IMG/VR virus record: IMGVR_UViG_646311924_000007
Location: 1 to 64,000 of that record
Strand: one strand, 5' to 3'
From: a virus
Taxonomy: Duplodnaviria; Heunggongvirae; Uroviricota; Caudoviricetes
Length of the DNA stretch: 64,000 nt
Below the pieces are notes generated by a model. That model saw only the letters and a program-made list of their open reading frames with translations, had not been told where the DNA came from and did not search any database. A program made the position numbers and the translations under genes. Shown here piece after piece: positions 1-843 of this stretch (position 1 is the first letter of the stretch; every line of letters begins with the position of its first letter).

Positions 1-17
1 ACATTATACGAAGTTAT
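1..17. other. loxP: partial loxP recombination site (last 4 nt of spacer plus right 13-bp arm TATACGAAGTTAT)
   Basis: Exact match to the right half of the canonical 34-bp loxP; cre follows downstream. Confidence 0.85.
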
Positions 18-29
18 CTTAAGGGTTAT

Positions 30-200
30 TGAACATGATCAATTTACCTGTAAATCCATACAGTTCAATACCTTATCAGGTCAAATAGTGATCACTTGAT
101 CATTTGATCAAGGTTGCGCTACGTAAAATCTGCGAAATGTTGGCAGTGTTAGTGCTCCAGATTTCGCGTAGCGCACTTAGCACCACCAATCAATCAGAGG
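30..200 (+). promoter_or_regulatory. lox-cre leader region with four GATC sites (37-40, 90-93, 98-101, 106-109) and an imperfect palindrome (about 117-180)
   Basis: GATC cluster and inverted repeat TGCGCTACG...CGTAGCGCA read directly; role inferred from position upstream of cre. Confidence 0.35.
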
Positions 201-206
201 TGAAAA

Positions 207-428
207 ATGGGATATTCAGCTGCTAAAGTGTCCACTCATCTTGAGCTTGAGAAAAACCGTGGTTACTGGCGGGCAAAATGGTTTGAGCGTGATAGTTACC
301 AACTGTCATTATCTCGCGGTGAAGAGAAAATAGAACGCACGCGCGGTCGCTGGCGTTTCTATGACGAGAACCATAACCAGGTAAAGGCAGAGCCAATCCT
401 GTACACTCTGCTGAAAACAATAATTTAA
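207..428 (+). CDS. hypothetical small protein (73 aa) between loxP and cre
   Basis: ORF with AGAGG-like RBS upstream; no recognisable domain. Confidence 0.4.
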   Translation: MGYSAAKVSTHLELEKNRGYWRAKWFERDSYQLSLSRGEEKIERTRGRWRFYDENHNQVKAEPILYTLLKTII

Positions 429-447
429 CTTGATCATGAGGTGATGA

Positions 448-843
448 ATGTTTAATGGCCTGACAGATGCCAAGGTAAACGCCTTACTGAACGACGCAAA
501 ACAAAAAGCTGCTAACCCTGGAACGAATGAAAATGAACGTGCTATGGCTGTTGCAATTTGGGAGTTAGCAGAAGAAGTAAAGCGAAACCGCTTACTATAC
601 ACTCGGGTTTACCAGCAATTTGATGGTGCGAGCTGGATAGATATCGAAGAGGCTGAATATGCAACATGCAAAAAAGAAAAAAAGATTGTTCGGATTTTGC
701 ATAAAGCAGCAACCCCAATCACTGTAGAAATCCCCGATCACAGATATTTCGAGAACGATGATCTACCAGGGGATGTGATTCGAATTATTGATGAGATACT
801 TCATGAACAAGGCTTAACTGTTAAAATTACGCATAATAAATGA
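448..843 (+). CDS. hypothetical protein (131 aa), stop codon overlaps the cre ATG (ATGA)
   Basis: ORF in an AT-richer patch; translational coupling to cre; no recognisable domain. Confidence 0.5.
   Translation: MFNGLTDAKVNALLNDAKQKAANPGTNENERAMAVAIWELAEEVKRNRLLYTRVYQQFDGASWIDIEEAEYATCKKEKKIVRILHKAATPITVEIPDHRYFENDDLPGDVIRIIDEILHEQGLTVKITHNK

Follow-up and report, generated by a model that had tools for sequence, protein, structure and literature searches.

An optional orphan gene between cra and cre in the lox-cre operon of P1-like elements

Cre-lox is among the most widely used recombination tools, and the natural operon behind it is usually taken as lox-cra-cre. The system is self-sufficient, and Cre needs no directionality factor. 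Genes for excisionases or recombination directionality factors are found upstream of tyrosine recombinase genes and overlapping them, as in the xis-int pair of phage lambda. In phages P1 (AF234172) and P7, the lox-cra-cre operon includes a lox site, a LexA box, cra, cre, and the downstream gene c8; it contains three cre promoters, and its genes form a tightly packed chain. The locus examined in this study has all of these parts in common with P1 and P7, including the lox half-site, a Cre of 98.8% amino acid identity, and the three promoters, save for one base change each in P2cre and P1cre. However, the 7 nt and the weak GAG motif found ahead of cre in P1 and P7 give way here to a 404-bp cassette with an additional gene, ORF131, that overlaps cre by the four nucleotides ATGA.

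The DNA analyzed here (the window) comprises 64,000 nt of the IMG/VR record IMGVR_UViG_646311924_000007 and, like the P1 reference AF234172, starts at the center of loxP; the complete 34-bp loxP was seen in related loci. The gene order after the loxP center follows the phage P1 map, and three ORFs on the + strand, cra, ORF131, and cre, make up the region (Table 1). With its loxP arm, cra, Cre, P1 gene order, and P1 promoters, the locus belongs to the P1-type (Punavirus-like) lox-cra-cre module. Its Cre differs from that of P1 by S2T and L4S at the cassette junction, and by A178S and A252S.

Table 1. Features of the lox-cra-cre locus of the window and optional genes of related loci
Feature	Position	Strand	Basis or remark
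Right half of loxP: 4 spacer bases and 13-bp arm TATACGAAGTTAT (5-17)	1..17	+	identical to AF234172 lox feature
P3cre promoter (TTGATC ... TAAAAT), including a Dam site	104..129	+	predicted; positional homology to AF234172 annotation, hexamers identical to P1
cra (Cre-associated), 73 aa, pI 9.6	207..428	+	phrog_804 match, E = 1e-32; P1 has cra at the same coordinates
P2cre promoter homologue, -35 TTGAGC (P1: TTGATC), Dam site lost	283..312	+	comparison with AF234172 annotation
P1cre promoter homologue, -35 TGTACA, -10 ATAAT (P1: ATTAT)	400..424	+	comparison with AF234172 annotation
19-nt spacer, start of the cassette; GATC 432-435; Shine-Dalgarno GAGGTGAT 438-445	429..447	+	read from sequence
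ORF131, 131 aa, ATG start, TGA stop	448..843	+	phrog_20152; RefSeq WP_000481733 'hypothetical protein'
A6-G-A7 homopolymer tract within ORF131	670..683	+	sequence
ATGA: cre start (840-842) overlapping ORF131 stop (841-843)	840..843	+	sequence
cre, 343 aa	840..1871	+	PF00589, E = 3e-32; 98.8% identical to P1 Cre
ORF356/352	L004 2699-3769 (also L005-L009); L030 3066-4136; L012 1277-2335		P1-like elements
ORF143, 143 aa, between ORF352 and cra	L012 2332-2763		Pantoea P1-like element

A megablast search with positions 1-1000 of the window returned 21 records of P1/P7-type phages. In each, the match was split into two pieces that covered some 58% of the 1000-bp query and spanned 596 bp in the phage record. 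The flanks were 95-97% identical to these P1/P7-type records. The inserted segment had no blastn or tblastn match in the phage collection, and none of the 21 P1/P7-type records carries the cassette. Alignment with P1 (AF234172) located the difference exactly between the stop codon of cra and the ATG of cre, an interval of 411 nt in the window and 7 nt in AF234172. The ATG of cre lies at 840 in the window and at 436 in AF234172, which gives a surplus of 404 bp against the 396 bp of ORF131. ORF131 has a GC content of 40.2% (GC3 33%), compared with 50.6% in cre and 48.0% over the whole window. These results agree with most of what an earlier, sequence-only reading of the window had proposed, namely that an extra 131-aa gene absent from P1 and P7 is present at 448-843, that the surplus distance from lox to cre is close to the length of this ORF, that the ORF is AT-richer than cre, and that its TGA overlaps the cre ATG. 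That reading had named a reference P1 with the same ORF at the same position as the finding that would speak against it; P1 was inspected and lacks the ORF. The reading placed the gene between lox and cre, and an extra gene does lie in that interval, but cra had been overlooked, so the actual place is between cra and cre.

All three cre promoters annotated in AF234172 are retained and lie upstream of the insertion, and the P1cre homologue now stands directly upstream of ORF131. A promoter/terminator consensus scan found no terminator-like site on the + strand of positions 1-2300. Because the three annotated cre promoters lie upstream and no such site was seen in this range, ORF131 appears to lie within the cre transcription unit, and on the simplest reading one transcript carries cra, ORF131, and cre in that order. 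On the + strand, the scan detected no promoter- or terminator-like site in 429-843 or its flanks, although a crude consensus scan of this kind is weak evidence. An Rfam search of the region gave nothing credible, and the RNA folds around the starts of cre and ORF131 were not more stable than those of shuffled sequence. The three cre promoters would thus drive transcription of ORF131 together with cra and cre, weakly and constitutively, in lysogens and in the early phase of infection. Relative to P1, two Dam (GATC) sites are lost, at 285 (285-288, inside the P2cre -35) and at 395 (395-398), and two are new, at 90 (90-93) and 432 (432-435). Dam-dependent control of cre transcription may differ between the window element and P1.

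The translation signals of the two genes were also compared. Before the ORF131 start stands GAGGTGAT, which matches the anti-Shine-Dalgarno sequence over eight bases and leaves 6 nt between its GAGG core and the ATG; this Shine-Dalgarno spacer is kept in both the Salmonella and the E. coli alleles. No Shine-Dalgarno-like sequence occurs in the 20 nt before the cre ATG, and the 4-nt overlap of ORF131 and cre was found in every allele examined. In the mechanism we propose, ORF131 would be translated efficiently from its own near-perfect Shine-Dalgarno sequence, and ribosomes finishing at its TGA would restart at the overlapping ATG of cre. With the cassette, the weak GAG motif seen ahead of the P1 cre has been lost, and ORF131 would replace cra as the upstream coupling partner. 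The translational coupling claimed by the sequence-only reading is consistent with the ATGA overlap and the bare cre start, by which ORF131 is positioned for it; the claim has to be qualified by P1, where no more than 7 nt separate the stop of cra from the start of cre. The cassette therefore swaps out an existing tight junction and does not create coupling from nothing. ORF131 and cre are probably translationally coupled, and the cassette probably resets the level of Cre.

Profile and sequence searches were performed to find relatives of ORF131. Among the family libraries searched, the only significant match was phrog_20152 ('unknown function'), which ORF131 fits over its full length (residues 1-131 on positions 1-131 of the 131-position profile, E = 3.8e-92). 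Pfam, NCBIfam, and PADLOC returned sub-threshold noise only; this includes hits to an FkbM methyltransferase (E = 0.09) and to AadA (E = 0.06) in the domain searches, and the best match to a known anti-phage defense protein in PADLOC-DB v2, JetC (E = 0.01, 11.7 bits), which falls over a helical stretch. A search of 5.8 billion proteins gave six clusters at 90% identity, which come exclusively from E. coli or Salmonella and whose contigs reach about 100 kb. An exhaustive phmmer search of 1.84 billion representatives yielded a single 50% cluster and a 63-aa fragment (P0007) that is 92% identical to ORF131 over residues 1-48. Further carriers are one metagenome contig and ten IMG/VR contigs. Long repeat proteins in the phmmer output were rejected as homologues; they share only a motif of 19-22 residues, YQxxDGxSWxDI..A..AT, matched repeatedly in Ig-like or cadherin-like repeats, and their apparently significant E-values arise because the scores of this short motif are summed over the repeats. 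The corresponding segment of ORF131, YTRVYQQFDGASWIDIEEAEYAT (window 601-666, residues 52-73), resembles the motif repeated in such bacterial Ig-like/cadherin-like proteins (P0008).

Structure prediction with AlphaFold2, from an alignment of seq­uences of seven members, gave a model with a mean pLDDT of 53, in which an N-terminal helical hairpin is followed by a small alpha/beta C-terminal part. A Foldseek search of this low-confidence model against the PDB found no match below E = 0.6, and a sequence profile search of the PDB found only a designed coiled coil (E = 0.74). When the cassette was searched with tblastn and blastn against the 64-kb window, no paralogue or internal duplication from which it could have arisen was found. 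A full-text search found, within the literature library covered, no paper that mentions the gene, which is already present in databases as an uncharacterized 'hypothetical protein'. By these searches ORF131 is an orphan, with no detectable relatives or known domain.

The distribution of the cassette was investigated in 5426 complete E. coli genomes. P1-type cre is present in 694 of them and the cassette in 31, so that about 95% of the cre-bearing E. coli genomes are without it. In all 31 genomes the cassette adjoins the integrase gene, and every locus examined has the order cra, ORF131, cre with the 4-nt overlap. Apart from one chromosomal record, the cassette resides on plasmids of roughly 87-137 kb, and strains of types O111:H8, O111:H2, and O103:H2 supplied many of these. 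As far as the databases searched extend, the cassette occurs in no other setting than P1-like elements of E. coli and Salmonella. The sole chromosomal match is NZ_CP015229.1 (1878332-1878772; E. coli 06-00048); a plasmid record under the same strain name, CP012497 (136 kb), has the same allele, and the chromosomal match may reflect integration of a P1-like element, or the two records may have been assembled differently.

Other optional genes were found in related lox-cre loci. P1-like elements of Salmonella, Cronobacter (JK004), and Pantoea carry between lox and cra a gene of 352-356 codons, ORF356/352 (phrog_7674, unknown function, no Pfam match), whose stop overlaps the start of the next gene by 4 nt (ATGA); it is absent from P1 and from the window. 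The Pantoea element has in addition ORF143, which contains a strongly conserved core, PAYWITY..HSHSGPESCARRIA.EIGG..PVYHG, shared with Ewingella and metagenome proteins, and one homologue of which matches PF26207. Like ORF131, these genes are optional members of the lox-cre operon, of unknown function, with a 4-nt overlap with the next gene. However, they lie upstream of cra, whereas ORF131 lies between cra and cre, and the sequences are not related: ORF143 and ORF356/352 were rejected as relatives of ORF131 (BLASTP E = 5.8, hhalign probability 0.4%). The occurrence of unrelated optional genes in different lineages suggests that the lox-cre interval is a variable slot that collects small genes.

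Several irregular records were encountered among these loci. The 73-aa Cra is named 'creatininase' (WP_282526074.1) in the RefSeq records NZ_CP124376.1 (56555-56776; L002 1288-1509), NZ_CP012497.1, and NZ_CP015229.1, almost certainly a misannotation of the Cre-associated protein. The lox site of Salmonella locus L009 (2468-2501) has the spacer GCATAAAT instead of GCATACAT, while the nearly identical L008 is canonical; either a single-base variant or an assembly error would account for this. A perfect 34-bp loxP match lies in the portal protein gene of Lactococcus phage Q33 (JX564242.1 / NC_049809.1, 17548-17581); it probably stems from engineering or from contamination of the deposited record and is not a natural site. 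The translation of a 237-bp contig of Acinetobacter idrijaensis (L013, JQCU01000190.1) is 99% identical to residues 165-242 of P1 Cre, and looks like vector or laboratory contamination of the assembly.

Comparison of alleles provided information on the coding status of ORF131. Five distinct alleles from E. coli plasmids and Salmonella assemblies all have 131 codons and no indels, and dN/dS for distant allele pairs is 0.12-0.35. For codons 91-131, pN/pS is 0.00-0.10 in pairs between E. coli and Salmonella and between two Salmonella alleles, with 8-10 synonymous differences, and codons 62-90 are relaxed (0.25-1.0), being near-neutral in close comparisons. By this substitution pattern ORF131 is a genuine protein-coding gene under purifying selection, strongest in the C-terminal 40 residues; it points to a translated protein in which the C-terminal module is constrained and a linker or surface is variable. 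The computed product is hydrophilic and soluble, with a mass of 15.0 kDa and a pI of 5.6. Copies frameshifted or truncated at the A6-G-A7 tract were seen in L029 (431-825) and in protein cluster P0006. In L029 cre is frameshifted too; a homopolymer sequencing error is the likely cause, and slippage is the alternative.

The evolutionary history of the cassette is distinct from that of cra and cre. Between the window and Salmonella locus L004, nucleotide identity is 60% in cra, 89% in the cassette, and 70% in cre, and the contrast between cassette and flanks is highly significant (Fisher p = 3e-17). The proportion of synonymous sites that differ (pS) between the same two loci is 0.29 for ORF131 and 0.81 for cre. 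Between L004 and L008, whose Salmonella backbones are nearly identical, the order is reversed, with 0.26 for ORF131 and 0.11 for cre, and L028 has a recombinant (chimeric) ORF131 allele. On these values, backbone divergence is essentially saturated at synonymous sites and the cassette is much younger. Forms free of the cassette exist in both backbone lineages, as in P1 and in the Salmonella-type Cronobacter phage JK004 (cra, 7 nt, cre). Next to the junction, only the last 30 nt or so of cra and the first 25 nt or so of cre are conserved in all lineages, and the Cre N-terminus MTNSL accompanies the cassette, where P1 has MSNLL. The cassette would spread among P1-like lineages by homologous recombination through these cra 3' and cre 5' tracts; such exchange would explain its invariant site, the ATGA overlap, and MTNSL. 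The term 'cargo', used for the gene in the sequence-only reading, is apt in that the history of the segment differs from that of its flanks.

We read ORF131 and its spacer as an accessory cassette that occupies a variable slot, is expressed together with Cre, and is exchanged among P1-like plasmid prophages, and its product as a moron-like protein; the probability of this reading is put at about 0.55. It presupposes a protein that matters and a segment that moves, and both points can be disputed. The insert might be kept only as a leader or translational tuner of cre, or the ORF might be spurious, so that its product is irrelevant. The AT-rich composition, the low-confidence structure prediction, and the near-neutral center of the gene in close comparisons (pN/pS up to 1.0) would fit this idea, but it is very hard to reconcile with the strong purifying selection on codons 91-131 (pN/pS not above 0.10) and the overall dN/dS of 0.12-0.35 between distant alleles, with a frame intact and free of indels across five alleles, and with the conserved 8-nt Shine-Dalgarno sequence; we regard it as highly improbable. 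Alternatively, ORF131 may have belonged to the cra-cre operon from the start and have been passed on vertically, with later deletion in P1 and most relatives. Its presence in two deep lineages and its seamless stop-to-start junctions, with no repeats or mobile-element scars, are what such a history would leave. Against this stand the pS of ORF131, far below that of the adjacent cre between lineages, the excess of cassette over flank identity (89% against 60-70%, p = 3e-17), and the more divergent ORF131 alleles of closely related backbones. Strictly vertical descent is contradicted by this synonymous-site pattern, and the ancestral explanation is improbable, although an older origin of ORF131 followed by allelic exchange is possible.

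The function of ORF131 is a separate question from its movement. Under the accessory reading, it would be expressed in lysogens and act on a target of the host or of a competing element, with exclusion, defense, or counter-defense as examples, and would not be a part of Cre-lox. Such a moron-like role, separate from the recombination chemistry, has roughly even odds as argued from distribution and context. It is favored because Cre works alone, most relatives are without the gene, Cre shows no co-variation in cassette carriers beyond junction codons 2 and 4, and other, unrelated optional genes occur in the operon. On the other side, the PADLOC search gave no support for a defense role, and the cassette is never found away from cre and is always start-stop overlapped with it, which would also be expected of a dedicated Cre partner. 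ORF131 may be a dedicated modulator of Cre, made in constant proportion to it through the coupled start. By binding to Cre or lox it would restrict recombination, steer it, or set its timing, for instance by favoring dimer resolution or damping Cre toxicity. This would suit a gene that occurs only immediately upstream of cre, with the 4-nt overlap, in two backbones whose cre genes are 70% identical in nucleotides; the acidic ORF131 product (pI 5.6) stands beside a basic recombinase (pI 9.6), and the neighboring cra is itself annotated only with a putative Cre-associated or regulatory function. However, Cre-lox is self-sufficient, the gene is missing from about 95% of cre-bearing E. coli genomes and from all sequenced P1/P7 phages, and the Cre of carriers is 98.8% identical to P1 Cre, with consistent changes only in codons 2 and 4. 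Moreover, ORF131 at 89% identity accompanies Cre proteins that share only 81% identity, recombination through the homologous flanks would account for the constant position equally well, and Pfam, NCBIfam, and PHROGs revealed no DNA-binding or recombinase-accessory domain. We consider a dedicated modulator unlikely. A more specific proposal, that ORF131 is a natural partner made in fixed ratio to Cre, which binds it and restrains or biases Cre-lox (limiting off-target or excess recombination, or favoring multimer resolution) and travels with the first cre codons as an exchangeable regulatory cassette, is more doubtful still. A toxin-antitoxin pair of cra and ORF131 was rejected, as cra occurs without ORF131 in P1, P7, JK004, and all other phage records examined.

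By these observations the operon is a modular slot in which different P1-like lineages hold different optional genes. One of them, ORF131, lies at just the point where translation of Cre is set. Should ORF131 be a mere passenger, it adds another orphan to the accessory genes of a phage-plasmid that is common in Shiga-toxin-producing E. coli O111 and O103. Should it change the level or activity of Cre, no natural regulator of Cre at the protein level would have preceded it. Its position makes an effect on natural Cre expression or activity cheaply testable with existing Cre-lox assays.

Compared with known systems, the ORF131 cassette has much in common with phage morons and accessory genes. 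It shows presence-absence polymorphism among near-identical backbones (31 of the 694 cre-bearing E. coli genomes and none of the 21 phage records), a deviant composition (GC 40% against 51%), and a decoupled history (89% against 60-70% identity, pS 0.29 against 0.81), and it is an orphan in a lysogen-expressed region. Classical morons have their own promoter and terminator, whereas a crude consensus scan found neither for the cassette, which is start-stop overlapped inside an existing operon; this counts against the accessory reading. The second resemblance is to gene pairs of the lambda xis-int type, in which a small gene lies immediately upstream of a tyrosine recombinase gene and overlaps it, as ORF131 does with cre through ATGA in all alleles. 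ORF131 differs from this type in that it is acidic (pI 5.6) and absent from most Cre-encoding elements; recombination directionality factors are small, basic, and DNA-binding, of winged-helix or HTH type, and no DNA-binding domain was detected in it with Pfam, NCBIfam, or PHROGs.
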